64,000 nt of DNA from Escherichia phage AugustSocin, in the sequence record MZ501052; one strand, given 5' to 3'. Positions 47,395-64,000 of this stretch are shown here, piece after piece. The notes below the pieces were generated by a model. The model was not told the origin of the DNA. It did no database searches and was given only the letters and a program-made list of their open reading frames with translations. Positions within the stretch are counted from its first letter, which is position 1; every line of letters starts with the position of its first letter. Position numbers and translations under genes: made by a program.

Positions 47395-47396
47395 AA

Positions 47397-47573: not shown

Positions 47574-47575
47574 AA

Positions 47576-48001: not shown

Positions 48002-48216
48002 TAATAAGTTTCCTTCCAGTAAGTTGTGCCATCTTCAGTAATTTCACGAAATACACCGTAAATTGGTTGTTTATCACCAACCTTTTCATACACATAAACC
48101 GAAGTCAAGTGAGTAAACTTAACGGTATGTTCTTTTTGAACTACTACCAAATCTGGATCGAATAGTACATCTTCAAATTCGTCATTAGTGCAATTCTGAA
48201 CAATTTTACGTTTCAT
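48001..48216 (-). CDS. hypothetical protein
   Basis: 71-aa ORF. Confidence 0.5.
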
Positions 48217-48229
48217 TACAATTTCCTCA

Positions 48230-48511
48230 TTAATTGAACAGTGGAGCGATGCGTTTCAGAAGAGTAGCAGCACCTTTAGCGAATTTTACATCATGAAAAA
48301 CAGTTTCTTCTTCCGTTACAACACGAGCTTTAATGTTTTCACAATCCCAATTTTTGCGAACAATCTTCAAAAGCTGCAGTAAATCTTTACATTCAGCAAT
48401 ATCGATAACACATCCACGAGAATCTTCCATTATCGCACGATAACCGTAAGCCATACCATAATCATTGAAAGATTGCTCGATGATAATTAAATTTTCCATT
48501 TTATTCTCCAA
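48230..48511 (-). CDS. hypothetical protein
   Basis: 93-aa ORF downstream of promoter/stem-loop element. Confidence 0.55.
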   Translation of the reverse strand: MENKMENLIIIEQSFNDYGMAYGYRAIMEDSRGCVIDIAECKDLLQLLKIVRKNWDCENIKARVVTEEETVFHDVKFAKGAATLLKRIAPLFN

Positions 48512-48514
48512 GTT

Positions 48515-48600
48515 GTTTTCTGTATCAGTAGTTGATATTGATATAGTACCATAATCAACTACTGATGTATATAGTTTTATGAAAAAATTTTAAACTTTAT
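48515..48600 (-). promoter_or_regulatory. promoter-like element with 12-bp inverted repeat (PeSL-like)
   Basis: TCAGTAGTTGAT...ATCAACTACTGA inverted repeat flanking an AT-rich -10-like sequence; GTTTAA -35-like hexamer; shares sequence with elements at 19.4, 36.7 and 40.3 kb. Confidence 0.45.
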
Positions 48601-49088
48601 GCATAGCGAGCTTTGCTATAGTGTTTAATCCAACTTTCAGGAATGACTTTGTATGTTCCTAAAAATACCGCGTTGTATAACTTAACGCCATCTTCTACCC
48701 ATTGATCAGTAATGTATGCACACATAGCGCGAGTACGGTTAACAACACCTTCCTCACCTTCAGTAAATTCAAACTCATAAGGAGCAACGAACTTAATAGC
48801 CTGACCGAGTTTCCACTTAAAGTCTACACCTACATGCGAAGTATCAATCGTTTCAATTCCTTTAGCAGGAACAGCTTTCAAAAACGCAGATTCAAGAAAT
48901 TTCGCACGAACATAGCCAAACTGAGGTTTAGACTTTCCATCTTTAGGAATGATACGCACTTTTACTTCAGAATCTTCATCTTTAACACCGTGTTTAAGCT
49001 GAATGCTTACAACTTCGACCAATTTTCCTGCCGCTTTAGAGCGGGATTTATCAGATACACGAGCTAATTCACCAATATTAATAATCAT
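48597..49088 (-). CDS. hypothetical protein, paralogue of next ORF (motB-like position)
   Basis: 163-aa ORF; C-terminal TDQWVEDGVKLYNAVFLGTYKVIPESW matches TDQWIEDGVELLNVVHAGEYSVVPRSA of ORF 49162..49599. Confidence 0.55.
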   Translation of the reverse strand: MIINIGELARVSDKSRSKAAGKLVEVVSIQLKHGVKDEDSEVKVRIIPKDGKSKPQFGYVRAKFLESAFLKAVPAKGIETIDTSHVGVDFKWKLGQAIKFVAPYEFEFTEGEEGVVNRTRAMCAYITDQWVEDGVKLYNAVFLGTYKVIPESWIKHYSKARYA

Positions 49089-49161
49089 AGTTATCTCTCA
49101 CTTGTTAAAAAGATTTTATACTCCACGGGACCATTATACTCTGGTCCCAAGAGTTTGTAAA

Positions 49162-49599
49162 CTAGCTTACACGAACATTAATCACTGCGCTGCGAGGAAC
49201 TACAGAGTACTCTCCAGCATGAACTACGTTCAGAAGTTCAACACCATCTTCAATCCACTGATCAGTCACCCATCCACCCACAGGATTCGCGAATGGACGA
49301 CGAATATAAACTGCCTTACACAGTAGATCAGTTGGATCTTCAGGTTTTTCAATTTCTGTCAATAGACTAAAATCTTTTTCATAAATAATAAGCGGTGATA
49401 CCATTCCATAATAGTTTCTAATTTCAATATACATCATACCGATAAGAATTCCGCTATTAACACTAATAACAGTAAAAGGATATCCGCCAGTTAAACCAAG
49501 AAGTTCACAAAACTTATTATGAACTGTATTAGACAGTACCGAAAAATTCTTAATTTCATCAAATTTTTTCAATTGATAAACAGCATTATTTTTAATCAT
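49162..49599 (-). CDS. hypothetical protein, paralogue of previous ORF
   Basis: 145-aa ORF sharing C-terminal motif with ORF 48597..49088. Confidence 0.55.
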   Translation of the reverse strand: MIKNNAVYQLKKFDEIKNFSVLSNTVHNKFCELLGLTGGYPFTVISVNSGILIGMMYIEIRNYYGMVSPLIIYEKDFSLLTEIEKPEDPTDLLCKAVYIRRPFANPVGGWVTDQWIEDGVELLNVVHAGEYSVVPRSAVINVRVS

Positions 49600-49609
49600 A
49601 ATTTTCTCT

Positions 49610-50152
49610 TTAATCTAAGGTAATAAAGCCTTTTAATTCGGCATGTGACTTGCGGAACATTACTTGATGCCCACCAATGATAACTTTATCTTCAGGTACT
49701 TCGTATACAGCGAGATAAAATCCTTTAGAAGCTAATTCTTCACGCTCTTCTCGTGTGAACCATCTCATCATATCATATTCACTAGCAAAAGCAAAATGAT
49801 AAAGAGCTATAAACCATCCTGGAATATAGTGATCTACGCCTACATATTCTTCTTTCTCAAAATTAGTATTAATTGCTATATTAGCATTTTTAACTAATAG
49901 TTTGTCTTCGTGCGGAAGAGGAATTCTTTTATTATCATTACTATGATGCATAAAATTAGGTCTGTCATAACCTACGTGTAATAACCACTCTTCGCTCCAT
50001 GAATCCATTATACTCCTGTACGGCGTTATTTGAACACAAAGATCTCGACGTATTGTTATAGCATCTTCATAATTAAGAATACTAAATGATGATTCAACAC
50101 GATAAATTTTCATTTTATTATCCTCAGTAGCTATGGTGTTATAATACCACAA
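49610..50152 (-). CDS. hypothetical protein
   Basis: 180-aa ORF downstream of early promoter-like element. Confidence 0.55.
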   Translation of the reverse strand: MWYYNTIATEDNKMKIYRVESSFSILNYEDAITIRRDLCVQITPYRSIMDSWSEEWLLHVGYDRPNFMHHSNDNKRIPLPHEDKLLVKNANIAINTNFEKEEYVGVDHYIPGWFIALYHFAFASEYDMMRWFTREEREELASKGFYLAVYEVPEDKVIIGGHQVMFRKSHAELKGFITLD

Positions 50153-50171
50153 CTAACCGAGGAAGTAAACA
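50133..50171 (-). promoter_or_regulatory. early promoter-like element
   Basis: Minus-sense GTTTAC, ~17-nt spacer, TATTATAAC -10-like. Confidence 0.45.
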
Positions 50172-50176
50172 ACTTT

Positions 50177-50860
50177 TTATCGTTTTGTTGGAAGAGATAG
50201 AGGATCGCACTCTTCCTCTGACGGAGCATCTTCAAGACCCATAGCATAGCGCAAAGCATACTTCATCATCAGGATGTCTTTCGCACAGTCATGAATAGAA
50301 TCATGTGCAACGAATCCATCTAAAGTTCCCTTTGGAAGAGGACATGTGGTCATATCACGAACAAGCAGAAGTGCTTCAATTCTGGTACGAATATCACGCT
50401 GATTCCAGAATTTACAAGGTTCTAACTTAAACGTATCAAGCTCATTCTCGGAAACGCCGTTAAGACGTTGAATATCGCGAATGAGATCGACTAAAATTGG
50501 AAAATCAAACGACATTCCACGGCACCAACCTTGAGATTTCCAAGGATCGATATTATGTGCATTGATGTAATCATTAAATTTTGCAATACCATCGATAGTG
50601 CTTACATCTTCATCTGATGGTGCAATATTTTTTCGAGCTTCAGGAGATTGATTCTTCCACCATTCGATAGTGCTTTTAGTAAAAAGACGATGTCCTTTTT
50701 GGCTTTTTAAATCAAACTTGATTTTAATGCCGCGTGAAACTAATTCATCAAATGTTTCAACTACTTCTGGATTAGGGTCAAAGGCAATAACAGCCAAATC
50801 AATAACAGCTGCCTTTTCACCGCTTCCCATTGTTTCAAAATCTATAATAAAATCAAACAT
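50177..50860 (-). CDS. dexA: exonuclease A
   Basis: 227-aa ORF (T4 DexA length) with DEDD-type N-terminal motif FIIDFETMG. Confidence 0.9.
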   Translation of the reverse strand: MFDFIIDFETMGSGEKAAVIDLAVIAFDPNPEVVETFDELVSRGIKIKFDLKSQKGHRLFTKSTIEWWKNQSPEARKNIAPSDEDVSTIDGIAKFNDYINAHNIDPWKSQGWCRGMSFDFPILVDLIRDIQRLNGVSENELDTFKLEPCKFWNQRDIRTRIEALLLVRDMTTCPLPKGTLDGFVAHDSIHDCAKDILMMKYALRYAMGLEDAPSEEECDPLSLPTKR

Positions 50861-51102
50861 TAAATTTTCCTCGCTAAATCGCGAATTTGGCCTACAGTAT
50901 AGTCTTGAATATAAACTTTATTAATAGGTTCATCAATAAATTTTGCCATAGATTCAATATCTTTTTGCATCTCTTCAAGACTGTATATTATCTTTAAAGC
51001 TTTTTCGCGAATAGTAATATTTTCAGGACCAGAATTTTTCTCAATGACAGCTTTAACATTTGTCATAAGAGATTTAAACTGACACCAACTTAATTCAATC
51101 AT
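50860..51102 (-). CDS. hypothetical protein (dexA.1 position)
   Basis: 80-aa ORF. Confidence 0.5.
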   Translation of the reverse strand: MIELSWCQFKSLMTNVKAVIEKNSGPENITIREKALKIIYSLEEMQKDIESMAKFIDEPINKVYIQDYTVGQIRDLARKI

Positions 51103-51355
51103 TAATAATCGCCTTATAAAGATAGCTAATTTCGCCTAAAATATAATCATTGATTGTAACAGTTTTCACTTCACCGCAAAAGAATTCTAACGCAATCAAA
51201 TCTCGTTCAATTTCTTCCAATTGAAGCATTAACTTGCCTGATTCAATTTTCACGTTTTTGCGATTTTTACTATAAGCTATTTCATAAATTTCGCTCACTT
51301 TATCTTGAAGCAGATAAAACTGGTCTTTAGTTATTTCCACGAATAGCTTCCTCAA
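51095..51355 (-). CDS. hypothetical protein (dexA.2 position)
   Basis: 86-aa ORF. Confidence 0.5.
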   Translation of the reverse strand: MRKLFVEITKDQFYLLQDKVSEIYEIAYSKNRKNVKIESGKLMLQLEEIERDLIALEFFCGEVKTVTINDYILGEISYLYKAIIND

Positions 51356-51587
51356 ATTTAATCAGCAGCTTACAGACACTTTCATCTAATGTAATTACCG
51401 TGTCTGTATTACTATGATATGATTGTTTTTCAATTCGTTTAATTGCTAGTATAGTATCACTTATAAGATTAAGTTTATAAAGGAGCTCAGCTCCTGTTAC
51501 CATAACACTGAGGTTATCTTGCTTATCAGTATGCTTCTTTATACCATCTATTAGACGATTTAAATATTTTGAATTGATGTTAATCAT
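51327..51587 (-). CDS. hypothetical protein
   Basis: 86-aa ORF directly downstream of dda. Confidence 0.5.
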   Translation of the reverse strand: MININSKYLNRLIDGIKKHTDKQDNLSVMVTGAELLYKLNLISDTILAIKRIEKQSYHSNTDTVITLDESVCKLLIKFEEAIRGNN

Positions 51588-51593
51588 ATATCC

Positions 51594-52913
51594 TCACACA
51601 TAAAACACATCATAACGACCACGAGTAACACCAACATAAAGAAGCTGCTGAGCTAGTTCAGCGTCTGCATAATGAATACAAGGCGTATAAATGAAAGCAC
51701 GGTCTACAGACATACCTTGAGCTTTATGGAATGTTGATGCAGGAAGTGCTTTCACTTTACTAAACTGTGATTTAGCATCCCAAAAATCACTCCATGGAGC
51801 TTTTCCGCCTTTGTTCCAATTTTTATAAGTTTCTGCCGTTTTACCTAAAAATAGGTTAAACTTATATAACTCTTCATCAGATGAAATTATTTTAATCTTT
51901 TCACGATAATATTCATCATCGCCGTAAGTTTCTACTGTTAAATCCCAATGACGAATTAAGTATTCTCCAGGAACACCACGAGCTTTAACAAACGTCGATG
52001 TATACTCTGCTTCTATAATACGAACTAATTGTCCGTTATTAAAAATAATTTCTGACACAGGCTTTCCATCAATTTTATATGTTTTAATTAATGGTTCCTG
52101 CATTACAATAATTTCACCGACAATAAAATCTTTATCAGTTTCAAAAATCTTTTTACGAATAATGCTATTTAACTTGTCAACAGATTTATTCGTAAATGCC
52201 ATTACGCGATTTTCAAACAAATCATCTAGTGATTTTACGATTGAAAAATAATTTACCATAAAATCGCGTAAAGCGGTATCACCTGTAAATCCACGTACTC
52301 CATGCCCGTCAACAATTTTATCATAAATCCACTTACCGTTACGAACGTCAGTAGCTACATCAATAATAGGAGCATTACTGCGTTTAACTTCAGTGAGTTC
52401 ACACTGATAAAAATCTTTATGTGTAAAGAATGGACTGATATAAGCAGTGTTTTCTCCTGGGTCAACAGGTCTAATTTGCTTATTATCCCCTATTCCAATT
52501 ATAGTACACCATGGCGGGATAGTTGAAAGTAGAATTTTGAATAGCTTTCTATCATACATTGACACTTCGTCGCAGATTAATACTCTGCATTTAGCTAAAT
52601 CCGGTACTTCTTTTTGTTCAAAAAGAACGTTTTCTTCATATGTTACTGGGTTAATTTTAAGAATACTGTGAATAGTACTCGCTTCTTTCCCTGATAGTTT
52701 TGAAAGAATCTTTTTAGCTGCATGTGTAGGAGCTGCTAAAATAATGCCAGTTTCGCCTGTAGATATTAAGGCTTCAATGATGAACTTGGTAAGAGTAGTC
52801 TTACCAGTACCGGCAGGTCCATTAATAGTCACATGATGTTTCTTTTCTTTGATAGCCCTCATAACAATGTTAAAGGCATTTTTCTGACCTTCGGTCAAAT
52901 CATCAAATGTCAT
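51594..52913 (-). CDS. dda: DNA helicase Dda (SF1B)
   Basis: 439-aa ORF MTFDDLTEGQKNAFNIVMRAIKEKKHHVTINGPAGTGKTT... with Walker A. Confidence 0.97.
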   Translation of the reverse strand: MTFDDLTEGQKNAFNIVMRAIKEKKHHVTINGPAGTGKTTLTKFIIEALISTGETGIILAAPTHAAKKILSKLSGKEASTIHSILKINPVTYEENVLFEQKEVPDLAKCRVLICDEVSMYDRKLFKILLSTIPPWCTIIGIGDNKQIRPVDPGENTAYISPFFTHKDFYQCELTEVKRSNAPIIDVATDVRNGKWIYDKIVDGHGVRGFTGDTALRDFMVNYFSIVKSLDDLFENRVMAFTNKSVDKLNSIIRKKIFETDKDFIVGEIIVMQEPLIKTYKIDGKPVSEIIFNNGQLVRIIEAEYTSTFVKARGVPGEYLIRHWDLTVETYGDDEYYREKIKIISSDEELYKFNLFLGKTAETYKNWNKGGKAPWSDFWDAKSQFSKVKALPASTFHKAQGMSVDRAFIYTPCIHYADAELAQQLLYVGVTRGRYDVFYV

Positions 52914-53221
52914 CGTAAATTCCCTGCAATTGGTATACTAACAATACGCCCAGTATCTAAAATTCGCCGATATAATCTTTGTGTGTCTACATCAGGCTTA
53001 ACATGTTTAACTTCTATTTTATTAAACCAAAACTTGCGTGGAGTCTCAACTAATCTCGGAATTCCCATACCTAAAGCTAGTCGATACTGCTCTTTAAGAG
53101 TAGTAAATACTTTATCAGCAATCTCCCTTTCAAAAAATACAGCAGGGCGATGTTCATCAAGCGGAACTGGCGCCGTAAATCCATCTTTATCTCTATAAAC
53201 TATCGCATATACATAAAACAT
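52910..53221 (-). CDS. hypothetical protein (dda.1 position)
   Basis: 103-aa ORF. Confidence 0.55.
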   Translation of the reverse strand: MFYVYAIVYRDKDGFTAPVPLDEHRPAVFFEREIADKVFTTLKEQYRLALGMGIPRLVETPRKFWFNKIEVKHVKPDVDTQRLYRRILDTGRIVSIPIAGNLR

Positions 53222-53222
53222 A

Positions 53223-53969
53223 TTATCCTCGGATAAGTTTAAAAATTGAACAATTTAGCGGGTATCCTCTTTTCAGTTTAAGTTTATCAATAAAAGACAA
53301 GTTTTGATACCGCTCTACACCTTGAATAATTTTATCACACATATCATATTGCATTTCTGCTTCTGACAACTTTTTCACAGTTTTCCAATCCGAGCCTTTA
53401 AGAAGAACGTTCAATTTAACAACTTCAGTTCCTTCTGCTATACGAGAACCATCAATACGAGCTTTGAGTGCTACAATCGTTAGCTTAACGTCAGAGGTCT
53501 GTTTTGATTTAGAAAGCTGAGAAATGTGCTCAATTCGGTTTTCACGTTTTTTCTGTATAGCTTTAATTTGATTATAAGTCTTTTTGATTTTAGCCCATTT
53601 CTTTTCATCTAAATTTAGTTTATAAACTTTTTTCGCAGATGAACGACCAATTCGCAAAGCAAATAAATCACGCTTTTCAATCAACTCTTCTAAAGTATAA
53701 TCAGAACGAAATGTATTGTACTTTTTCTTTACTGCAATAACATTCCCTTTAATGTATCCAACGTTATTATCAAAACGTTCTAATGATAATTTCTCTCCTT
53801 CAATACGATTATCAAAAGGTTCTCCTGAGTAAGCGCAAACTTTCTGATCTAAAATGTTCTTAATGTAATTGAAGTCTAAGTTAAAATCTTTAGAACGTCT
53901 TTTAGCAGATGCCTGAGTGTGCTCTAGACGACGTGTAATTTTACGAATTTGATTTTTAGACAGTTTCAT
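53223..53969 (-). CDS. srd: Srd-like protein (sigma-related)
   Basis: 248-aa basic ORF between dda.1 and modA, T4 srd position and size. Confidence 0.7.
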   Translation of the reverse strand: MKLSKNQIRKITRRLEHTQASAKRRSKDFNLDFNYIKNILDQKVCAYSGEPFDNRIEGEKLSLERFDNNVGYIKGNVIAVKKKYNTFRSDYTLEELIEKRDLFALRIGRSSAKKVYKLNLDEKKWAKIKKTYNQIKAIQKKRENRIEHISQLSKSKQTSDVKLTIVALKARIDGSRIAEGTEVVKLNVLLKGSDWKTVKKLSEAEMQYDMCDKIIQGVERYQNLSFIDKLKLKRGYPLNCSIFKLIRG

Positions 53970-53991
53970 ATTTTTCTCACGGACGGGTTAA

Positions 53992-54028
53992 CTACTTATA
54001 CTATAACATTTTACTTCAGCTTGTAAAC
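53992..54028 (-). promoter_or_regulatory. early promoter-like element upstream of srd
   Basis: Minus-sense GTTTAC, ~17-nt spacer, TATAGTATAAG -10 region. Confidence 0.45.
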
Positions 54029-54084
54029 AACTTTATGAAAAATGCTTTAAAACTTTCATGGTATAATGAATCTAAGTCCTTCCA

Positions 54085-54687
54085 TTATAGATTAAATCCT
54101 TCAAAATCAAGAGTATAGATAGTGTATGTTGAATACTTTTTATACTCGTATCTATCCGCAATTCTAAATACACTTCCAGCTGGTATCATTACTTCTTGTT
54201 CATCTGAAACTAATTCCATATTACGATAGCGATGGCTATCCGGAAACTTAAAACTCGGACTATATTCTTTACAACGTAAAGCTTTTATAGCATACTCCTG
54301 GAAATTAAACACCATAGGAGCTTTGAATTCAAAAATAACTTGTGTGTTGTATTCTAATCCAGAAGCAAAATGTAGAGCTATATTTTTATCATATGAAGCT
54401 GATACTACTTTATCAAATGTAATAATATCAATTCCTTGATTTAACACCTGTTTAGTCTCAACTGGAACACCTCTCCAAAGAGGTTTATCGTTTGGAACCA
54501 AACGAGATTTGACTATTTCATTTAACCAAGAATGATCGTCTGGTTTATTAGTAATACAATGAATTAAAAGTTCAATTTCAGATAAATTAAATCCTTCGGA
54601 AAGTAATTCTTCACGAATAGAAGCACGCACAGATGCATCCATTGATTTGATTTTAAAATCTTTTAATTGCATTGCTGAATATTTCAT
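54085..54687 (-). CDS. modA: ADP-ribosyltransferase ModA
   Basis: 200-aa ORF, first of two tandem paralogous ORFs, T4 ModA length and position. Confidence 0.8.
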   Translation of the reverse strand: MKYSAMQLKDFKIKSMDASVRASIREELLSEGFNLSEIELLIHCITNKPDDHSWLNEIVKSRLVPNDKPLWRGVPVETKQVLNQGIDIITFDKVVSASYDKNIALHFASGLEYNTQVIFEFKAPMVFNFQEYAIKALRCKEYSPSFKFPDSHRYRNMELVSDEQEVMIPAGSVFRIADRYEYKKYSTYTIYTLDFEGFNL

Positions 54688-55307
54688 TCAACTACCTCAA
54701 TATCATACACTTTAAATGTTCCAAATGAATCGTGTAATTTTTCTTTTGAAATAGAAGTTATTTTATACTTTCCAATTGGAATCATCCATTCCTGTTCACG
54801 CACAATCATCATTAAGTTATCAGTACGTTCTGAATCTAATCCATCAGTATCTTCATATGTATACTTAAACTCAGTATTAGGAGAAGAAAGTATAATATCG
54901 CTGATATGGTCAGAGTAATTAAAAGCTTTATCAGTTTTTAAACGAAGTATTGTTTCAGTGAAATATTCAGCGTAAGAAAAAGAACATGCTGTGAACAAAC
55001 TAGTAGTAAATGAATCTACTCTGTTCGTTGAAAACACTTCTCCAACTTGTAAATCTTTAATGAGTTCTTTTGTCGATTTTGATATACCACGATATAGCTG
55101 ATAAGGTGATTTAGTTAAATGCTTTTTAATGATTTTATTCAACTGCTGATGAAGAGCTTCATTCTTTTTGGCTTCCATACATTGCCAAAGAATTGACTGT
55201 TCAAAGTCAGTAAATTTTTCACAGACCTTTTTATACATATCATATTGAAAATCAACGCTTTCAGCTTTTATAGATAACTGTTCAACATCTGCAAGATTAA
55301 TAATCAT
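54684..55307 (-). CDS. modB: ADP-ribosyltransferase ModB
   Basis: 207-aa ORF, tandem with modA, T4 ModB length. Confidence 0.8.
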   Translation of the reverse strand: MIINLADVEQLSIKAESVDFQYDMYKKVCEKFTDFEQSILWQCMEAKKNEALHQQLNKIIKKHLTKSPYQLYRGISKSTKELIKDLQVGEVFSTNRVDSFTTSLFTACSFSYAEYFTETILRLKTDKAFNYSDHISDIILSSPNTEFKYTYEDTDGLDSERTDNLMMIVREQEWMIPIGKYKITSISKEKLHDSFGTFKVYDIEVVE

Positions 55308-55327
55308 GATAGCCTCCGTATACTTCA

Positions 55328-55363
55328 GAAGCTATCATATCATCGTTAGAAAGGAAAGTAAAC
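55328..55363 (-). promoter_or_regulatory. early promoter-like element upstream of modB
   Basis: Minus-sense GTTTAC, ~17-nt spacer, ATGATATGATAG -10 region. Confidence 0.4.
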
Positions 55364-55374
55364 AACTTTTTGAA

Positions 55375-55557
55375 TTATTTTGCCCAGGGAGCCCAGGGCG
55401 GAGGGTCAAGATGGTATGAAGCTAGTTCTTCTAGAAGAGCATCTGGGGCTTCAATTCCATAATTCTGTAATACTATACGGTACTCTTTCTTATAATCACT
55501 AGAATCATTCTGGATATTCGTAGAATGATTATCTTCTAACATCTCAAATAAATCCAT
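55375..55557 (-). CDS. hypothetical protein
   Basis: 60-aa acidic ORF. Confidence 0.45.
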   Translation of the reverse strand: MDLFEMLEDNHSTNIQNDSSDYKKEYRIVLQNYGIEAPDALLEELASYHLDPPPWAPWAK

Positions 55558-55565
55558 ATTAATTC

Positions 55566-56036
55566 CTAGCGATAAAAACCAAAGTGACGATTAGCTTCAG
55601 CAATCTTTCTTTCTTCTTCGGACATTCTCCAGCGTAGTCCAACGTCAAAATGAGCCCAGACCATCTTAACAAATGCGTTTATATCTTTAATATCTTCAAT
55701 AATGAATGTTTTACTTTTAAAAGGCTGACTCGCTAATTTAACTTTATCATCTTCAAACAGGTCAAAAAGACCATATTCATGAGCTCTTTTATAGCCTTTA
55801 ATAGTTAAAGCTTCAGAAGAAGAAAATGGTGAATCTGTATTTTGCAAAATATCTTCAGTATGCTTTATAATTAGAATAACATTTTCTGGATATTTTCTTT
55901 CTTTTATATCTTTAATTAAAATATCCGGATTTTCTGCTAAAGGAATAATCAATGAGCAATTTTTATCAAGCGTATTTACTGATTTACCTTCTTTAGACAT
56001 AAATTCTATTGAATAATGTTTTGCTACTTCAATCAT
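55566..56036 (-). CDS. hypothetical protein (mrh region)
   Basis: 156-aa ORF. Confidence 0.5.
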
Positions 56037-56189
56037 GTGATTTCCTTTTGCCTACTAATGGACCGTCGGGAATTTTGTTTTCCTGGATATACTTCTCATT
56101 TTCTTCCATCATTTTACTACCAATTTTAAGAAGCAAATCCATTGCTTCATTTGCTTTAGCTTTAGCCTCTTCTAACGTCATATCTTTGT

Positions 56190-56393
56190 TCATGATTTAT
56201 CACCATAGATGTCTCTCATCAATTTAAGCGCTGAGCGTTCTAATTTCTTTTCTTTCTCAGCACTAATCATTGATTTCATCCATTCTTCCGATTCATTCTG
56301 CATTTCTTTATTTGCTTGTTCAACCCAACCATCATCAATATACATTGAGTTTGGTCTATTGAACCATTCAAGAATCTTCTTCAGAACTTTCAT
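56190..56393 (-). CDS. hypothetical protein
   Basis: 67-aa ORF. Confidence 0.45.
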
Positions 56394-56865
56394 TTGTTTT
56401 ACCTAAAACAATAGTAGGAGCATCGTCAAATTCATGAATTTTTAGCAATTTTGGATTTAAATTATTCCATACATAATAAATGAAGTATGATAAAGCATCT
56501 TCACTCGCAATTATAAATTTATTTCCTTTATCTATTTTCCAGTCATATACTGAATCGTACGAATAAAAAGATAAAGGCTTATCATTATATTGTTCTGCGC
56601 TAACATTAATGTATTCGGATTTAGTAAATGCTTCAATTGCTCTAAACGGACTATTTGGAACAGTTTCAATAATACCAATCTTTTTAAGTTTTATTTCAGC
56701 ATCTTCTGGAACTGGCATTGAAACGAAATTTTCTACGAGATACATAGGATTACGATAACCCTTATCAATAATTACAGCTACAGTAATTGGAACATCTTTA
56801 GCAAATGACATGCTATTACTGCTAATATACATTTCAAACAAAATAGCTTCCATAATTTTCCTCAA
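56368..56865 (-). CDS. hypothetical protein
   Basis: 165-aa ORF. Confidence 0.5.
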
Positions 56866-57203
56866 TCACAAGATGTAGATGAACAACTAGAATCACAAGA
56901 ACTTCCACATGAATCGCCCGTCCATACATGAACAGGAACATTAGTATCATATGAATCAGAACTAGACTGTGTATTCTGTGTGTTAGATGATGTAGTAGGT
57001 ACTGACCAGCGCCAAGGATTTTTATAATATTCTTGGGCTTCTTCATAAGTCATAGTAACTGCTTCTACTGTTCCATCTCCCATATAAACATACTCAACTA
57101 CAGTTAAAGGGAGATAGTCATTTGAAATAGGAACTACACCTTCCCCAGGAGTTGTAGAGAAAAAATCCGTAAAGAAACTTTTAAACCAATTAAAGATAAA
57201 CAT
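56862..57203 (-). CDS. hypothetical protein with Cys/Ser-rich C-terminal tail
   Basis: 113-aa ORF ending ...[20 protein letters not shown]. Confidence 0.5.
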
Positions 57204-57409
57204 TACAAAAAGCCTCTTTTGAATTCAACTTGTTTATCGCCATAATCATATCGAATCTCTGCATTAAATTCGACAGAACCATCTGCGTACATCATAAATG
57301 AATGCACAACAACTTCTGTAGACCATGGTTGTAGTTCATATTTCTTCATTACATGCCGTGAAATGATAATATCTAAATCTTCATTTGGTTTAATCCAGCG
57401 ATTTAACAT
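57203..57409 (-). CDS. hypothetical protein
   Basis: 68-aa ORF downstream of early promoter-like element. Confidence 0.5.
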   Translation of the reverse strand: MLNRWIKPNEDLDIIISRHVMKKYELQPWSTEVVVHSFMMYADGSVEFNAEIRYDYGDKQVEFKRGFL

Positions 57410-57431
57410 AGTACTCTCCTCTATAAGATAA

Positions 57432-57465
57432 TTCTATTATACCATACTCATTTTGGAAAGTAAAC
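57432..57465 (-). promoter_or_regulatory. early promoter-like element
   Basis: Minus-sense GTTTAC, ~17-nt spacer, GGTATAATAG -10 region. Confidence 0.45.
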
Positions 57466-57471
57466 CGGTAA

Positions 57472-57500
57472 AATGAAAAAAAGGACTCCCTAGGGAGTCC
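57472..57500 (-). terminator. intrinsic terminator downstream of soc
   Basis: Minus-sense AGGACUCCC-UAGG-GAGUCCU hairpin followed by UUUUUUU. Confidence 0.7.
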
Positions 57501-57510
57501 TTGAATTATT

Positions 57511-57680
57511 AACCACCTATTTCTGTAGGCGTAAACATTGCAGCATTCTTAGTTTTCCAAGTTGCTGCATCGGAAACTACATCAGAATAAGCTGCTACCA
57601 CCTATTTCTGTAGGCGTAAACATTGCAGCATTCTTAGTTTTCCAAGTTGCTGCATCGGAAACTACATCAGAATAAGCTGC
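57511..57680. repeat. perfect tandem direct duplication, 2 x 85 bp, spanning the soc 3' end
   Basis: 57511-57595 and 57596-57680 are identical (ACCACCTATTTCTGTAGGCGTAAACATTGCAGC...AGAATAAGCTGCT). Confidence 0.8.
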
Positions 57681-57830
57681 TTTTTCTGACGGAAAGATTT
57701 GATAATGAGAATCTGCAATACGGTGTTCATTTGAATATACATCAAATGCTACAGAAACTTCCATACCTTTAACTTCTTTGCCTTCACCTGCTGGATGAGT
57801 AAAGGTCTTGATGTTAACGAAACCACCCAT
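57582..57830 (-). CDS. soc: small outer capsid protein Soc, C-terminus altered by the tandem duplication
   Basis: 82-aa ORF MGGFVNIKTF...FPSEKAAYSDVV...; a single repeat copy would end ...TEIGG (78 aa), current ORF ends ...TEIGGSSLF. Confidence 0.8.
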   Translation of the reverse strand: MGGFVNIKTFTHPAGEGKEVKGMEVSVAFDVYSNEHRIADSHYQIFPSEKAAYSDVVSDAATWKTKNAAMFTPTEIGGSSLF

Positions 57831-57862
57831 AATAAACTCCTTTATTGTTTAATTACAGGTGT

Positions 57863-57870
57863 ATTTATAA
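57863..57870 (-). promoter_or_regulatory. late promoter TATAAATA for soc
   Basis: Plus-strand TATTTATA (minus-sense TATAAATA) ~33 nt upstream of soc ATG. Confidence 0.65.
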
Positions 57871-58011
57871 CTTACAATTTAGCGGCTTTCCAGAGTTGTT
57901 CAATAATCTCTTGGTCTATTTCTTTAGTTATTTCATTACGTAATAAAGCAGTAAGGGCTTTCGCCCTTTTCTTATTCAACTTTTTGAGTTGACGTTTATT
58001 TAAACGAGACA

Positions 58012-58530
58012 TTAATAACCTCGGTCCTGACGAGCAAAGTTCTCGGCATTTTTCAGATAATAAAGTTTAAAGATTTCTTCTGCTGTAAGACCAAGACCTT
58101 GGAACATGTTCAGAACGAAATGGAGAATATCAATCATTTCAAACTTAATTTCCAGTTGGTCTTGTGGAGACAAATCAGTAATCAGAGTTTCACGACGTTC
58201 ACCATGCTGCGACTTCCAAGGTTTCCATACAGCAGATGCGTCTTTTTCACCATTACTCATACCACCAAGAGAAGTTAGAAGTTCACGGAATTCATCGTCA
58301 ATATAATCTTTCTGATTACGCAACCAATCAACAACTTCACCGGCAGTAGCCAAATCATCAGGATGACGATTATATTCAGGTTTATCTTTAGCTAAACGAA
58401 TCTGCAGAGATTTCTGCATGTCAAGCATTACCTGCAGCGGGTCTTTTTCATCACCGAGAATATCCCAATATTCATTTTGAGCTTTATCAACACCTTCGAT
58501 CAAATGAGCACATTCATTAAAGTGAGCCAT
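58012..58530 (-). CDS. 56: dCTP pyrophosphatase gp56 (MazG-like)
   Basis: ~172 aa from MAHFNECAHLIEGVDKAQNEYWDILGDEKDP...; track ORF starts 31 codons upstream at a hydrophobic Met. Confidence 0.9.
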   Translation of the reverse strand: MAHFNECAHLIEGVDKAQNEYWDILGDEKDPLQVMLDMQKSLQIRLAKDKPEYNRHPDDLATAGEVVDWLRNQKDYIDDEFRELLTSLGGMSNGEKDASAVWKPWKSQHGERRETLITDLSPQDQLEIKFEMIDILHFVLNMFQGLGLTAEEIFKLYYLKNAENFARQDRGY

Positions 58531-58601
58531 TATTTTTCCTTTCAATTCATGGGTTAGTAGATTAATTATACAATAAATATATAAAGCAATAAGGAGGACA
58601 T

Positions 58602-58802
58602 ATGGTACAAAAATTAATGGCACTTGTTAATGCCATCAAAGGTAATAAAAAGCGTATAGCTTTTACTATTTCTGCTATGGTAGGAATTTTACTCTGGAAC
58701 TTTATTTTATCACCTGTTGCAATTGCACATGGTATTAATATTCCAGTAGTTACTCTTGATACGTTCGTAGATTTAGCATTTGCTTTAGTTGGGTTAATTT
58801 AA
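58602..58802 (+). CDS. small membrane protein encoded on the opposite strand between genes 56 and 61
   Basis: 66-aa ORF with AAGGAGG 4 nt before ATG; two hydrophobic segments (FTISAMVGILLWNFILSPVAIA, VDLAFALVGLI); 3' end overlaps gene 61 stop. Confidence 0.55.
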   Translation: MVQKLMALVNAIKGNKKRIAFTISAMVGILLWNFILSPVAIAHGINIPVVTLDTFVDLAFALVGLI

Positions 58803-59827
58803 ATCTTAGCATATTTAGATAGCCGCATTTTAGCCATCAACCCCTGTGCAATATTATTTTTCATATATTCCATAATTTGTTCAGGGGTTGCACCTTCCTT
58901 TCTAATCATATCATTAACATCTTTTGATTTCCAGGGAGATTTATCCCAAAACATAACCCTTTCTCCTGCATCAACTAATTTAGTCATTCGCTTAATAGTG
59001 TCAGGATGACGAGGTTCATTATCTAAAACCCACACACGTCTATCTTTAAATGGAACAACTTCTAGGTCTAATTGACCACCCGTAATAGCTATACCATTTT
59101 CAATAAAAAGTGAATCTATAGGTCCTTCTAGAACATATACATCACCATCTTTAACTCGTTCGACTCCATAGATTTTTGTTGCCTCAGGATAAGCTTTGAT
59201 GGTGATATATTTTTGAGGAGCATCTTTCTTTAATGCACGTCCTTGAAAAGACTCAGCTTTTCCATTAGCATTATAAATTGGAATAACAAGACGAGGCTCA
59301 GGTATTTCCTTTTTATATGTTCCTGGTGCTATGCTATTAACTAATTTAGGCCATTCAGTTGTAAACCAAAGATATTTCCATTTATCCTTTGGAATACAAC
59401 GAGCTTTTACATATTTTATAATTGGATGGTCTTCCGCCAGTTTATCTAATCTAACACATGACGGAAGAGATTTAATTATTTTCTTCTCAGGTTGTTTAGG
59501 AAGTTCTTTAGGTTTTTCTACTGGACGACTTTTACCTTTTTCTTTTCTTATTTCAAAGATATACTCACGATATAAATCGGGTTCAAACTCCTTTAAATAT
59601 ATTCCGATTGGTGCATGATAGTTACAGTTATAACAATGAATATTTCCTTCATTATTATCACCATAATACCATCCACGAGCTTTATTCTGATCGGTTTTTG
59701 AATCTCCACAAACAGGGCATCTAAACCGCAATTTAAAAGTTGAACTATTATTTACTTGTGTGAATTTAGGTAAATGAGCTAATGCACGATACGCAAACTC
59801 ATTATCAATCCAAGGTATTGATGACAT
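58799..59827 (-). CDS. 61: DNA primase gp61
   Basis: 342-aa ORF with zinc ribbon CPVCGD...CYNC and Toprim-like EGPIDSL / DNEPRH motifs. Confidence 0.95.
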   Translation of the reverse strand: MSSIPWIDNEFAYRALAHLPKFTQVNNSSTFKLRFRCPVCGDSKTDQNKARGWYYGDNNEGNIHCYNCNYHAPIGIYLKEFEPDLYREYIFEIRKEKGKSRPVEKPKELPKQPEKKIIKSLPSCVRLDKLAEDHPIIKYVKARCIPKDKWKYLWFTTEWPKLVNSIAPGTYKKEIPEPRLVIPIYNANGKAESFQGRALKKDAPQKYITIKAYPEATKIYGVERVKDGDVYVLEGPIDSLFIENGIAITGGQLDLEVVPFKDRRVWVLDNEPRHPDTIKRMTKLVDAGERVMFWDKSPWKSKDVNDMIRKEGATPEQIMEYMKNNIAQGLMAKMRLSKYAKI

Positions 59828-59829
59828 TT

Positions 59830-59994
59830 TTACTCTTCTTTTTCTTTAGATTCCTCTTTCTTCTTTTTAGGAATCTGTTCAGGACCTTTATTTACTACAG
59901 CGCCCGACGTTGTTCCAGTAGAGATATTTTCAGGATTACCACCTGAATCTCCAGCTACCATATCTTCTTTAATAAATTCTTTATATGTTTTCAT
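59830..59994 (-). CDS. small acidic/basic ORF (~55 aa) between 61.1-like ORF and gene 61
   Basis: MKTYKEFIKEDMVAGDSGGNPENISTGTTSGAVVNKGPEQIPKKKKEESKEKEE; stop immediately before gene 61 ATG; below track cutoff. Confidence 0.4.
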   Translation of the reverse strand: MKTYKEFIKEDMVAGDSGGNPENISTGTTSGAVVNKGPEQIPKKKKEESKEKEE

Positions 59995-59995
59995 A

Positions 59996-60352
59996 TTAAC
60001 CTCTATTCATAAAAGCATTAAAAATTTGGTCATCAATAGATGGCACAGTAATATTTTCTGCATCATTTAGCAAATCATTAATTTCATCAGATAGCATAAC
60101 ACATGTGCCTTTATTTCCTGTAATTGTTACTGCACAATTACGAACGTTTTCTTTATCAAATTTTAGGTTAATATTTTCGTAGTGAAAATCCTTTAATGCC
60201 GAATATATCTTTAAAATGAAATTGTCTTTTACTACAATAAACCCAACCTCACTATTAAAACGTGGTTCATGGAAACTGTAATAAACCTTTTCATCTATAA
60301 AATCGTATGAAATTTTTTCCATTTTTAAATATGAAAATTCAGAACTATACAT
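59996..60352 (-). CDS. hypothetical protein (61.1 position), paralogue of C-terminal part of next ORF
   Basis: 118-aa ORF ending SIDDQIFNAFMNRG, shared with ORF 60354..60995. Confidence 0.55.
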   Translation of the reverse strand: MYSSEFSYLKMEKISYDFIDEKVYYSFHEPRFNSEVGFIVVKDNFILKIYSALKDFHYENINLKFDKENVRNCAVTITGNKGTCVMLSDEINDLLNDAENITVPSIDDQIFNAFMNRG

Positions 60353-60353
60353 A

Positions 60354-60995
60354 TTAACCTTTATTCATAAAAGCATTAAAAATTTGATCGTCAATAGAAA
60401 CATTTACTTTAGACTGTTTTTCTGATGGTAATTCATATCCACATATTACAATTTTGTGATCAATATCAAAATACACAGAAGCAATATGATTAATGATGTT
60501 TTCAGTAAAGTCTAAATCAACATCAATATCTTTTTGACCACAGCCCAAAGGATAAATAATGCGAGTAATTCGATTATCTTTAACAAATATTCCACCGACA
60601 TACTCTGTGCTGCGTTTAAAGTTTACACGTTTCCTAAATGAAAAATATTCAGGTTCTTTATGAGCCCGACTCATAGGACACAATGAGTAGCTAGAATAAG
60701 AGATGTCAAATCCTACACCTTCAATATGAGCCAACGCGTCATGATTAAACCAATTATAATCATATGCCAAATCCATTATATTGTAATATGTGAAAGGCAC
60801 CGGATTAACATCATGTGTTGTACCTTTAAAATCTGCCCAGGCAACGATTTCGTTATCTTTAACAATTACAAAAATTGTGTCAATAAGATATCCACGGTTA
60901 TTTTCATCAGGCGTTATATTATAACATTGTGCATCAGGAAATTTACCGTATTTAAACGGTGGATTTTTGTGCATATAATAAATCATATTATTCAC
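60354..60995 (-). CDS. hypothetical protein (61.2 position)
   Basis: 213-aa ORF; C-terminal ~80 aa (IFVKDNRITRIIY...SIDDQIFNAFMNKG) paralogous to ORF 59996..60352. Confidence 0.55.
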   Translation of the reverse strand: MNNMIYYMHKNPPFKYGKFPDAQCYNITPDENNRGYLIDTIFVIVKDNEIVAWADFKGTTHDVNPVPFTYYNIMDLAYDYNWFNHDALAHIEGVGFDISYSSYSLCPMSRAHKEPEYFSFRKRVNFKRSTEYVGGIFVKDNRITRIIYPLGCGQKDIDVDLDFTENIINHIASVYFDIDHKIVICGYELPSEKQSKVNVSIDDQIFNAFMNKG

Positions 60996-61281
60996 CTGTG
61001 ATTTCGGTTACGATATTTTTGTTATTAAAGTTTTTATCGCAATACAGAACATAATTATACTGCATTACACCACCAGACTTAAGTTGTTTTTGCACTTCAG
61101 CTTTCATTTTAGGACGATCGCGCTCAACAATATTCATAATATCCGCTTCAATTTGAGTTTCAACTTCAGTCTGATCTACAGTCATAGACCATTCACACAA
61201 GTCTTTATCATATCCTGCCATAGCAGGCTGAGCAGCACAAGAAGCCAAAGTAAAAATTGTAGCAAAAATAAATTTTTTCAT
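60988..61281 (-). CDS. putative lipoprotein (61.3 position)
   Basis: 97-aa ORF with signal peptide and lipobox MKKFIFATIFTLASC. Confidence 0.55.
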   Translation of the reverse strand: MKKFIFATIFTLASCAAQPAMAGYDKDLCEWSMTVDQTEVETQIEADIMNIVERDRPKMKAEVQKQLKSGGVMQYNYVLYCDKNFNNKNIVTEITGE

Positions 61282-61304
61282 GATAATCTCCTCAGTAGTT
61301 TATG

Positions 61305-61340
61305 TTTATATAGTATCTCAATTTCCAACAAAAGTAAACA
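61305..61340 (-). promoter_or_regulatory. early promoter-like element
   Basis: Minus-sense GTTTAC, ~17-nt spacer, GATACTATATAA -10 region. Confidence 0.45.
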
Positions 61341-61341
61341 G

Positions 61342-61599
61342 CTATTTTAAAACTTCTGCATAATCACATGTTACAAACTGTTTCTCTAGCTTAACGATCT
61401 TACGAAAATGCCTTTTACACTGACGAATCTGCCTCTTCGTAGGACGTACAACAAACTTGATAAATTCCACTCGACCAAATGGAGGGCTTTCTTCTGCTGG
61501 AATATCTAACACCAATTCCCATGTATCCGCAATAAGTGCTTTGAATTGAGTATTTTTCCTGACGTTATACGGAGTAGGTTTAAATAAAACAATATGCAT
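61342..61599 (-). CDS. hypothetical protein (61.4 position)
   Basis: 85-aa basic ORF. Confidence 0.5.
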   Translation of the reverse strand: MHIVLFKPTPYNVRKNTQFKALIADTWELVLDIPAEESPPFGRVEFIKFVVRPTKRQIRQCKRHFRKIVKLEKQFVTCDYAEVLK

Positions 61600-61600
61600 A

Positions 61601-61783
61601 TTATCCTCGGCAATCTACTTCACATACTTTCTTGTCATCAATGAAAGCTTTAACTAATGCTTTATTAACTTCAGCATATTGAGTAGTAGCCCATTGAACG
61701 TCATCTTTCATCATTGTGATTTCTTTAGTAAACATGTTTTCATTCTTAAACCACCCCATAAAAACTACCTTTACCAATTCCAT
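61601..61783 (-). CDS. dmd: Dmd-like protein (antitoxin against host RnlA/LsoA in T4)
   Basis: 60-aa ORF MELVKVVFMGWFKNENMFTKEITMMKDDVQWATTQYAEVNKALVKAFIDDKKVCEVDCRG directly downstream of gene 41; matches remembered T4 Dmd length and position. Confidence 0.7.
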   Translation of the reverse strand: MELVKVVFMGWFKNENMFTKEITMMKDDVQWATTQYAEVNKALVKAFIDDKKVCEVDCRG

Positions 61784-61805
61784 AACAATCTCCTCATTTA
61801 ACCAA

Positions 61806-61843
61806 CAAGACTACTATACCATAGTCTTGTCAGTTTGTAAACT
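61806..61843 (-). promoter_or_regulatory. early promoter with hairpin around -10
   Basis: Minus-sense GTTTAC then CAAGACTA-TGGTATAG-TAGTCTTG inverted repeat, upstream of dmd. Confidence 0.5.
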
Positions 61844-63269
61844 AAAATTTTAATTCATTTGCCAAAGCATCTAACTGAGCTCGAGTGGATTCATTTCTTT
61901 GATAGCGATTCTGTTCAGCCTGAATCTGTTGTGAACCTGCTACTTCACTCACTTCAGTTGGAGTAGAATCTTGTTCAATTTCTACCCATTTCTGATTTCC
62001 CTTTTGAACACCCATTAAAAACTTATTCCACTTATTCTTATCGCCATATCGTGATTTGATTTGCTTAATGAGTTGTTGTTCAGCAGCTGCTAGCTCCTCG
62101 GTTTCAATGACCGCAAGCATAAAATCAGCTGTTGCTGGAAGACCAGCAGATTCTGCAATATCGCTCATGTTAACATCGGAAGAGTCCCAAGCTTGTTTAC
62201 CGACCTGTGCTGCAGTCCAAAGAACAGTTTCGGTTTCAACAGCCAGAGCACGCAATTCCTCTGCAATAGCTTTAACAGTTGTGTAACTATTTTCTGAATA
62301 AACTCTGATGCGGCAAGATTTACAAATACCTAGATAGTCGACAATAATGATTGTTGGAACAAAATTCTTCTTGAGCTTCAATTCATTCAAGAGAGACCTG
62401 AATGTGTTAGCATCTGCCCCACCAGTGGGATACTGTTTAACGATTAAACGACCAAGAGTAGATTTCTCACGCCATTTTTCCATTTTTCCTTTATACTCAG
62501 CGTAAGAAATATGCCCATCATCAATGTCATCAAGAGAAACATCAAGCATATTAGCATCAATACGCTTAGCACAGACTTCTTCTGCCATTTCCATGGAAAT
62601 GTAAAGAACATTATGTCCGAGCTGTAAATAATCTGCTGCTAATGAACACAATCCTAATGATTTACCAACGTTAACGCCAGCCATTAAAACGTTCAGTGTT
62701 CCAGTCTCAGCTCCGCCTTTAGTAATTTTGTTTAGAATTCTGAGTTTAAATGGAACCTTACGAGCTTTATTCATATAAGATAGCCAACGTGCTTCGTAGT
62801 CATCCATCCAATCATGACCAACGTAACTATCAAATGAAATTGATAATGCTTGGCGCATGATGTCAGGAATAGCACCAACATCCGGCATTTTCTTATTTCG
62901 TTTTTCCGGAGGAAGTTCAGCATTAGTTTGAATTTCGATTATTTTAGACGTAGCATTAAACATCGCCCTTTGCTGAACATATTTTTCTGTTTCTTTTACT
63001 AACCAGCTGTGGTCTTCCGGAGAATCAGCTAGTTTTGAAATAAGTGTTTTTACACCAGAATATTCTGTTTCAGTAAATGAACTATTTTCTAATGCAACAT
63101 TTAACGCATTAATAGATGGAACGCTATGATACTCATTAACATGAGATTTAATTAATTTGAATGTATTTTTAGCTGGACCACTTTCAAAATATTCTGAATC
63201 CATATATGGCCAAACTTTTGAAAAATAAGCTTGATCAAATATGAGATGAGAAAGAATAATTTCTACCAC
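61842..63269 (-). CDS. 41: replicative DNA helicase gp41 (DnaB-like)
   Basis: 475-aa ORF (T4 gp41 length) with Walker A GVNVGKS. Confidence 0.97.
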   Translation of the reverse strand: MVEIILSHLIFDQAYFSKVWPYMDSEYFESGPAKNTFKLIKSHVNEYHSVPSINALNVALENSSFTETEYSGVKTLISKLADSPEDHSWLVKETEKYVQQRAMFNATSKIIEIQTNAELPPEKRNKKMPDVGAIPDIMRQALSISFDSYVGHDWMDDYEARWLSYMNKARKVPFKLRILNKITKGGAETGTLNVLMAGVNVGKSLGLCSLAADYLQLGHNVLYISMEMAEEVCAKRIDANMLDVSLDDIDDGHISYAEYKGKMEKWREKSTLGRLIVKQYPTGGADANTFRSLLNELKLKKNFVPTIIIVDYLGICKSCRIRVYSENSYTTVKAIAEELRALAVETETVLWTAAQVGKQAWDSSDVNMSDIAESAGLPATADFMLAVIETEELAAAEQQLIKQIKSRYGDKNKWNKFLMGVQKGNQKWVEIEQDSTPTEVSEVAGSQQIQAEQNRYQRNESTRAQLDALANELKF

Positions 63270-63278
63270 ACTTACTCC

Positions 63279-63641
63279 TTAAAAGAATTTAAATTTTTTC
63301 TTTGACCTTTTATTAAATGCATCTTGTAGTTGCATTGTAATACATTTTTCTACATGAGGAGCTAACTCAGCTTTTCTTTCTTGGTCAAGAACAGCAAAGT
63401 CCATTACAACCTTTCCATCAACCCAATCCAGTTTTGTTACATACACTATATGTGTAGAACCATCTTCTAGTTTAATGACAATCTCCTGGATAACATTTTC
63501 CATGGCAGATTTAATTATCTTAAGAGATTCATTAAAAAGACGTTCTTTTCTTTCTTCTTCCCCCTCCGAAGAGGGGGATTCATCGATAATTTCTAGATCT
63601 AAATCTAAATCATCTTTATTCATTAAATTCTTCCATATCAC
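63279..63641 (-). CDS. 40: gp40-like protein (head assembly accessory)
   Basis: 120-aa ORF between uvsX and gene 41; acidic N-terminus. Confidence 0.7.
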   Translation of the reverse strand: MIWKNLMNKDDLDLDLEIIDESPSSEGEEERKERLFNESLKIIKSAMENVIQEIVIKLEDGSTHIVYVTKLDWVDGKVVMDFAVLDQERKAELAPHVEKCITMQLQDAFNKRSKKKFKFF

Positions 63642-64000
63642 TTAACTGTTCGAGGTCAGTTTCTAAATCAGCAGCTGATTTACTTTTACTTTCTGGAGAT
63701 TTAAATTTTTCAACCTTTGAGTTAATCAATTCATCAACTTCAGCTTCAACAATTTCATTGCTATCAATAGCACCTAACTGATAAGCACGTTTAATAGCAT
63801 CTCGGAATGGTTGATGCTTAAATAAAGGACCCCAGAATGTAGTGCAGTTGGTATCTTTTGCACGCCAAGATTTTTCTTCGCGAATCATCTCACCGGTTTC
63901 TTCATCAAGAAATTCACGAGCATACCAACCGTTCTTAGGTTTTACCACGAATCCTAATTCTAGAGCCATATCTAACAATCCAGAATAAGGATCGATACCA
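63616..64000 (-). CDS. uvsX: recombinase UvsX, C-terminal part (gene begins beyond window end)
   Basis: Frame open to window edge; C-terminal sequence ...LELGFVVKPKNGWYAREFLDEETGEMIREEKSWRAKDTNCTTFWGPLFKH... with acidic tail. Confidence 0.9.
   Translation of the reverse strand, partial: GIDPYSGLLDMALELGFVVKPKNGWYAREFLDEETGEMIREEKSWRAKDTNCTTFWGPLFKHQPFRDAIKRAYQLGAIDSNEIVEAEVDELINSKVEKFKSPESKSKSAADLETDLEQLSDMEEFNE

Follow-up and report, generated by a model that had tools for sequence, protein, structure and literature searches.

In the reference genome of phage T4 (NC_000866.4) the DNA adenine methylase gene dam lies between genes 56 and 61, as the initial annotation of the present locus had stated. 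The 309 bp that separate dam from 61 in this record (17626..17934) are unannotated, and the gap holds an open reading frame (17738..17938); T4 encodes both dam and this small ORF. Elsewhere the ORF already has names, and most relatives have it annotated. The T4T record HM137666 annotates it as gene dam.1, ‘Dam.1 hypothetical protein’ (ADJ39749.1), the RB69 orthologue is RB69ORF029w (NP_861719.1), and the RB32 orthologue RB32ORF030w (YP_802972.1) is annotated as ‘similar to RB69ORF029w’. T4T is the T4D sequence from the Karam laboratory, and its source paper does not discuss dam.1 (PMC2993671). The ORF is not listed in the T4 entry X01416 of 1984 either. Because the RefSeq T4 record omits dam.1, T4 omics studies relying on RefSeq annotation would miss the gene; our literature search, conducted with dam.1, the orthologue names and the PHROG and extended to T4 small-protein, transcript-start and omics papers, returned no paper mentioning it. 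All 11 aligned members of the family match PHROG 2024, a family of unknown function. Altogether, dam.1 is a known and annotated, conserved hypothetical gene (dam.1/RB69ORF029w/PHROG 2024), to which we add here a conserved late-promoter box, a compact divergent promoter layout, a topology model and the observation that the gene is omitted from the reference T4 annotation.

The DNA analysed here, referred to below as the window, is a stretch of 64,000 nucleotides from Escherichia phage AugustSocin (MZ501052), a T4-like phage (Tequatrovirus). Its 56-61 region is ~96% identical to those of wV7, CAM-21, Sf23 and similar Tequatroviruses, and the features discussed are collected in Table 1. Gene 56, which forms the left boundary of the interval, starts with MAHFNECAHL in agreement with T4 gp56, and a longer, GTG-initiated version of the ORF extending to 58623 was for that reason dismissed as an artefact. 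The gap between gene 56 and gene 61 measures 265 bp, matching the ~270 bp given initially, and does not contain a methyltransferase ORF, as was also stated; tblastn with T4 Dam against the whole 64 kb window produced no match (best E=2.1). What the gap does contain is the 66-codon plus-strand ORF, preceded by an AAGGAGG site and convergent on gene 61, just as described from the first reading of the sequence. The stop codons of the two genes overlap by 4 nt (TTAA), and the GGAGG of the Shine-Dalgarno site is kept in all orthologues. The encoded protein is 97% identical to that of T4 dam.1, and the two ORFs agree in length (66 aa), in strand and in directly adjoining gene 61. The difference lies upstream: in T4 the dam cassette immediately precedes dam.1, whereas in the window the ORF faces gene 56 directly. 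The interval is a compact divergent control region with one real gene.

Table 1 Features of the 56-61 interval and of related loci in the window
Feature	Position	Strand	Evidence and remarks
Holin T	33223..33882		PHROG 860; canonical holin
Basic ORF, 46 aa (MSRLNKRQLKK...)	57872..58012	-	Between soc and gene 56
GC-rich hairpin	57953..57968		Within the 46-aa basic ORF
Gene 56 (dCTPase/dUTPase)	58012..58533	-	PHROG 173 nucleoside triphosphate pyrophosphohydrolase, E=1.9e-46; left interval boundary
MotA-type middle promoter of gene 56	MotA box TGCTTTA 58588..58582; -10 TATAAT 58570..58565	-	Sequence read directly; promoter function putative
Late-promoter box AATAAATA	58572..58579	+	T4 consensus TATAAATA with A at -13; 22 nt before the ATG; predicted transcription start near 58585
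Shine-Dalgarno AAGGAGG	58591..58597	+	4 nt before the dam.1 ATG
dam.1 ORF, 66 aa	58602..58802	+	Orthologue of T4T dam.1/RB69ORF029w/RB32ORF030w, PHROG 2024; predicted small inner-membrane protein
Terminator-like hairpin, 11 pairs + UUUUU	58614..58639	-	~160 nt downstream of gene 61; inside dam.1 codons 5-13
Gene 61 (DNA primase)	58799..59827	-	PHROG 47 DNA primase, E=7.9e-107; convergent with dam.1
61.1	59830..59994		
sp	60988..61281		In the early-gene region

The orientation of dam.1 sets it apart from its surroundings. We scanned the early region (33900..64000) for plus-strand ORFs of at least 35 aa that possess a Shine-Dalgarno site, excluding those covered by minus-strand ORFs of 60 aa or more, and dam.1 was the sole ORF to pass, which agrees with its initial description as the only well-supported plus-strand ORF of this minus-strand early region. 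Another plus-strand candidate, 59821..59946, was set aside, as it is situated opposite gene 61.1. On the other side of gene 56, in the place where T4 has the homing endonuclease segF, the window carries a 46-aa basic ORF, and the GC-rich hairpin within it has a terminator-like score on both strands.

The initial annotation had further proposed that the plus-strand ORF stands in this interval ‘instead’ of dam. This does not hold, as T4 has both. When T4 DNA is compared with the window, the two align at 58445..58570 and at 58591..58863, with ~900 extra bp (dam) in T4 in between; the insertion point of dam is thereby placed between the gene-56 promoter and the ribosome site of dam.1. A Dam at least 90% identical to that of T4 was detected in 182 records, and the dam.1 ORF at the same identity level in 502, so that the dam-less interval is the majority state. 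Going by these records, Dam is an accessory insert, or optional cassette, present in about a third of Tequatrovirus records, T4 included, and its absence from the window is therefore an ordinary polymorphism. The same slot is occupied by a homing/mobile endonuclease insert of ~650 bp in the Tequatroviruses G50, G4498 and 235Ecol030PP. As judged from the genomes compared, the slot is an insertion hot spot in which dam.1 represents the constant part, remaining next to gene 61 throughout the T4-like phages irrespective of dam.

The distribution of the gene is broad. With the window protein as the query, tblastn retrieved 696 phage records, 686 of them with at least 80% of the ORF length, and with a distant family member as the query it retrieved 945. 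In every locus inspected, from Tequatro-, Mosig-, Gapriver-, Kanagawa-, Jiaoda- and Gelderlandvirus (6-7 Tevenvirinae genera), dam.1 was found in the same place and orientation, i.e., on the plus strand between 56 (with or without inserts) and 61 and convergent on the latter (window, T4T, RB32, RB69, p000v, VR25, Q7622, CIP9, pKp20, Metamorpho and UTK0003). Pairwise Nei-Gojobori dN/dS values range from 0.1 to 0.4 for every informative pair, and dS is saturated when genera are compared; the variable columns are distributed over codon positions 1/2/3 as 43/20/56, and ~50% amino-acid identity is retained where synonymous sites are saturated. Since dam.1 overlaps other genes only in its last 4 nt, these figures reflect selection on the Dam.1 protein itself. 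Even the most distant members, with a protein identity of 21-33%, have W32, N33, P38, G44, P48 and G64 in common, which are invariant. On the strength of this comparison, dam.1 is demonstrably a real gene: conserved, syntenic and under purifying selection. One might still ask whether so short an ORF, absent from the classical T4 annotation (X01416, NC_000866), arose by chance in an A/T-rich spacer; conservation, synteny and purifying selection refute this, together with the strong Shine-Dalgarno site and the membership in a PHROG family, and leave it a negligible probability.

Some loci exhibit peculiarities of their own. In T6 (AP018814.1; locus L002, 2501..2503) ATT replaces the ATG of dam.1, and the annotators of the record start the protein at Met6; the ATT could be a weak start, could result in a shortened product or could be a sequencing difference. 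The Gaprivervirus VR25 (locus L004, 2495..2901) has a tandem pair of divergent paralogues, VR25_031 and VR25_032. Of these, VR25_032 is Kanagawavirus-like; as it lacks a late box, it is probably transcribed together with VR25_031.

The divergent control region comprises the 68 bp between the start codons of gene 56 and dam.1. On its minus strand the putative middle promoter of gene 56 has TATAAT 11 nt after TGCTTTA, and a like architecture upstream of gene 69/56 is annotated in the T4 entry X01416 as ‘mot-box of promoter P(M) 16.53’. The plus strand contains a late-promoter box that departs from the T4 consensus at position -13 (Table 1). Among T4 late sites, 32 of 50 are perfect and 9 of 50 have A(-13) (Geiduschek and Kassavetis, PMC2988020), and this position is poorly conserved among T4 relatives (Nolan et al., PMC1524935). 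The late box of dam.1 sits within the spacer of the gene-56 promoter, and the same 24 bp accommodate two promoter classes on opposite strands.

An (N)ATAAATA box was identified 12-24 nt before the ATG of dam.1 in 10 of the 11 loci (six genera), in contexts that are otherwise unalignable. It reads GATAAATA in T4, AATAAATA in Mosigvirus, CATAAATA in Gaprivervirus and Jiaodavirus, and both TATAAATA and CATAAATA in Kanagawavirus; the Gelderlandvirus orthologue deviates in having only ATTAAATA upstream. For gene scans we defined the box as ATAAATA at -48..-9 before the start. By this definition, among the 88 candidate genes of the window only gp34, gp36, holin t, soc and the dam.1 ORF are preceded by it, and across the 11 loci it was found before dam.1 in 10, before soc in 11, before 61.1 in 5 and before none of 68 other candidate genes. 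The spacing from box to ATG in dam.1 resembles that of the t and gene-36 promoters. Its recurrence in unalignable contexts and its restriction to five window genes and to none of the 68 others make the box more than an A/T-rich coincidence, although part of its composition in the window could be owed to the A/T-rich opposite-strand promoter in which it is embedded. At the level of genome comparison, the late box before dam.1 is both conserved and specific.

No sigma-70-like site was found on the plus strand in 58534..58601, and neither was a MotA-type or early-type promoter on the plus strand upstream of the ORF. From the specific late box and the lack of a sigma-70-like promoter we infer that dam.1 is transcribed late, in a gp55-dependent manner. 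Against this stands the HMM-based list of 31 RB69 late promoters of Nolan et al., which has no plus-strand site near 16.0 kb.

Additionally, two-strand counting over the window (128 kb) gave 8 occurrences of TATAAATA and 4 of AATAAATA, with a rough expectation from base composition of ~14 each; except at true late promoters, such words seem to be underrepresented. Another observation concerns 61.1 (54-56 aa): in Gapriver-, Kanagawa- and Jiaodavirus (loci L004, L005, L009, L010 and L020) the gene follows a TATAAATA or AATAAATA box, and in the window and in T4 it has no such box upstream. The pattern points to a late promoter of 61.1 that is confined to certain lineages.

A further signal is embedded in the dam.1 coding sequence, on the opposite strand. 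The terminator-like hairpin listed in Table 1 folds with -12.7 kcal/mol (z=-3.15), a TransTermHP terminator is annotated at the same place in the SA21RB record, and the hairpin likely serves as the terminator for the primase transcript. Gelderlandvirus possesses a similar strong hairpin, which Mosig-, Gapriver- and Kanagawavirus lack. Downstream of dam.1 no plus-strand terminator was found in the window, and a transcript from the late box would thus continue into gene 61 in antisense orientation. These features, along with the convergent 4-nt stop overlap seen in most genera inspected, would fit a situation in which the protein is incidental and the segment is kept for the gene-61 terminator, or in which a late antisense transcript lowers expression of the primase gene 61. 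However, the low dN/dS and the preponderance of third codon positions among the variable columns point to the protein as the selected entity, the six invariant residues and the amino-acid conservation would be left unexplained, and three genera (Mosig-, Gapriver- and Kanagawavirus) keep the protein without the hairpin. The latter fact led us to reject the minus-strand terminator as a general reason for conservation, and we consider an explanation through RNA or DNA signals very unlikely; an antisense role may exist as an added effect.

The product itself has the properties of a small membrane protein, as was initially claimed, namely a basic N-terminus, a hydrophobic helix and, in the RB69 orthologue, a single predicted transmembrane segment. 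Residues 1-18 of the window protein have a net charge of +5 (N-terminal charge is +1 to +7 across the 11 members), residues 19-42 are hydrophobic, and over the C-terminal 24 residues the net charge lies between 0 and -2 in the 11 members. Past R18 the protein lacks Lys and Arg, so trypsin would release this part as one hydrophobic peptide of ~48 residues, which makes standard tryptic proteomics ill-suited to its detection. The AF2 model computed from the single sequence (mean pLDDT 78) consists of helices 2-14, 16-42 and 52-64, and for RB69ORF029w one transmembrane segment at 21-41 and no signal peptide were predicted (Nolan et al. 2006). The initial annotation had counted two hydrophobic segments. 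By hydropathy both are present in Tequatro- and Mosigviruses, where the C-terminal segment equals the first in hydrophobicity, but as transmembrane helices only the first (~19-42, predicted N-in) is robust family-wide; across the family the second segment bears conserved Asp/Glu, His, Lys or Arg. As modelled, Dam.1 is most likely an N-in, C-out single-pass inner-membrane protein with an interfacial periplasmic helix, and, given the hydrophobic C-terminal segment of Tequatro- and Mosigviruses, a two-helix hairpin may be the alternative. The invariant residues are clustered at the predicted outer end of the transmembrane helix and in the following turn, a pattern more in keeping with a specific contact in the membrane or at its surface than with bulk membrane damage.

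Protein and profile searches connected the 66-aa product to PHROG 2024 only (E=1.4e-31; residues 2-66 aligned with positions 1-65 of the 65-position profile). This was the single PHROG match at E<=1, with no similarity to the Imm and Sp families, and Pfam-A gave no match at E<=10, type I toxin profiles (Hok, Ldr, TisB, Ibs and the like) included. In NCBIfam, the 11 members yielded P13 porin (0.025) and bunyavirus NSm (0.12), with one member each, both weak and irrelevant. The family profile against PDB sequences recovered only nicotinic-receptor TM4 and YejA helices at E>0.2, which were rejected as compositional. A phmmer search of 1.84 billion representatives returned, besides phage orthologues, three long repeat proteins: one PQQ-like β-propeller (‘LLWNYTTG..SSPAVANGVVY’ repeats), one with SH3-like repeats and one with a degenerate repeat; we rejected these as a repeat-amplified chance likeness to the ‘LLWNF..SPVAIAHG’ of Dam.1. 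Foldseek with the AF2 model against viral structures found family members only, and a helical model of 66 residues cannot support fold inference. Scanning IMG/VR with the family alignment identified 12 loci, none of them beyond the known genera.

These results bear on the function put forward in the initial annotation, that of a small membrane effector, for example in superinfection exclusion or toxin-like, here taken to be expressed early and possibly to fill the dam slot. Small size, hydrophobicity and predicted membrane targeting are in line with it, the early-gene region includes sp, and subtypes within the family and tandem paralogues in Gaprivervirus are often seen in arms-race proteins. 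The signal upstream of dam.1, however, is a late box unaccompanied by a plus-strand promoter of sigma-70 or MotA type, a poor fit to the early exclusion genes imm and sp. Neither the Pfam search, small toxin families included, nor the PHROG search provided a match that would point in this direction. Moreover, coexistence with dam in T4 means that dam.1 is no replacement, and as the gene is intact in ~700 genomes, any toxicity would need to be tolerated by the phage. We regard an early effector as unlikely.

Overall, the best explanation, to which we assign a probability of roughly 0.6, is that of a conserved late gene for a single-pass inner-membrane protein, Dam.1, which would act on a membrane partner, in an interval where dam is optional. 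In detail, the gene would be transcribed late by the gp55/gp33/gp45-RNA polymerase from ~58585, and its product would insert in the inner membrane with the basic N-terminus (1-18) in the cytoplasm and one transmembrane helix (~19-42). This arrangement would place W32-N33...P38...G44...P48 at the outer end of the helix, and the C-terminus would form a short amphipathic helix (52-64) on the periplasmic side. Dam.1 itself would be neither an enzyme nor a pore. The weakest step is the last one, the proposed binding of a membrane partner via the invariant motif, through which Dam.1 would take part in the late envelope programme, be it in lysis timing, in lysis inhibition or in late exclusion.

A more specific and quite speculative proposal, which we consider doubtful, is that Dam.1 is an overlooked component of the late envelope programme, whose W-N...P...G...P motif would bind holin T, antiholin RI or a host membrane protein and so tune lysis timing, lysis inhibition or late superinfection handling. 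If true, the omission of dam.1 from the reference T4 annotation would explain why such a component went unnoticed for 40 years. As a genomic feature, the ORF is real but ordinary. Its residual value is modest: an apparent late gene in an early region, with a protein distributed across 6-7 T4-like genera and missing from the RefSeq T4 record. For annotation, the lesson is that dam-less 56-61 intervals are common in Tequatrovirus and that the small plus-strand ORF next to the primase gene is a constant, already annotated element.

Comparison with known systems starts from lysis. T4-like phages lyse their hosts by means of holin, endolysin and spanin, and one could suspect in Dam.1 a second holin, a pinholin or an antiholin. 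The late box architecture is the same as in the promoter of the t holin, the proteins have 63-69 aa with one or two hydrophobic helices, the M1..K4..M6 start of Tequatrovirus proteins resembles a dual-start motif, and one orthologue is named ‘Holin’ in UniProt, a submitter's label with no evidence attached. Yet one robust transmembrane helix, small size and a late box are not specific to holins. The protein ends hydrophobic (...LAFALVGLI) and does not have a charged hydrophilic C-terminal tail, and only Tequatrovirus members possess M6, those of Mosig-, Gapriver-, Kanagawa-, Jiaoda- and Gelderlandvirus containing just one Met. No holin family of PHROG or Pfam was matched, and the window already encodes the canonical holin T. 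A holin-type function thus appears to us distinctly unlikely.

With regard to its expression, dam.1 has a counterpart in the classical T4 late genes embedded in early regions, such as soc, located 0.7 kb away. Like dam.1, soc is a short gene among early genes, with a strong Shine-Dalgarno site and a TATAAATA-type box 20-35 nt before its ATG. Unlike dam.1, which is on the opposite strand and encodes a predicted membrane protein, it is read from the early (minus) strand, and its product is a capsid decoration protein; its late promoter is annotated as P(L) 15.32 in X01416, and its late transcription is known from the literature, whereas that of dam.1 is our prediction.

At the protein level, holin T, antiholin RI, Imm and Sp are, as predicted for Dam.1, small inner-membrane or periplasmic proteins, and t shares its promoter class, but none of the four has a sequence relationship with it. 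T and RI possess a periplasmic globular domain and Dam.1 does not; Sp has a signal peptide and none is predicted for the RB69 orthologue of Dam.1; Imm has two transmembrane segments, Dam.1 one robust segment. Finally, protein E of phiX174 is a single-pass inhibitor that acts via a conserved transmembrane helix with an essential proline. There is no homology between E and Dam.1, but in the latter the invariant residues, proline included, are located in or just after the transmembrane helix and not in a soluble domain, a likeness that may serve as a lead.
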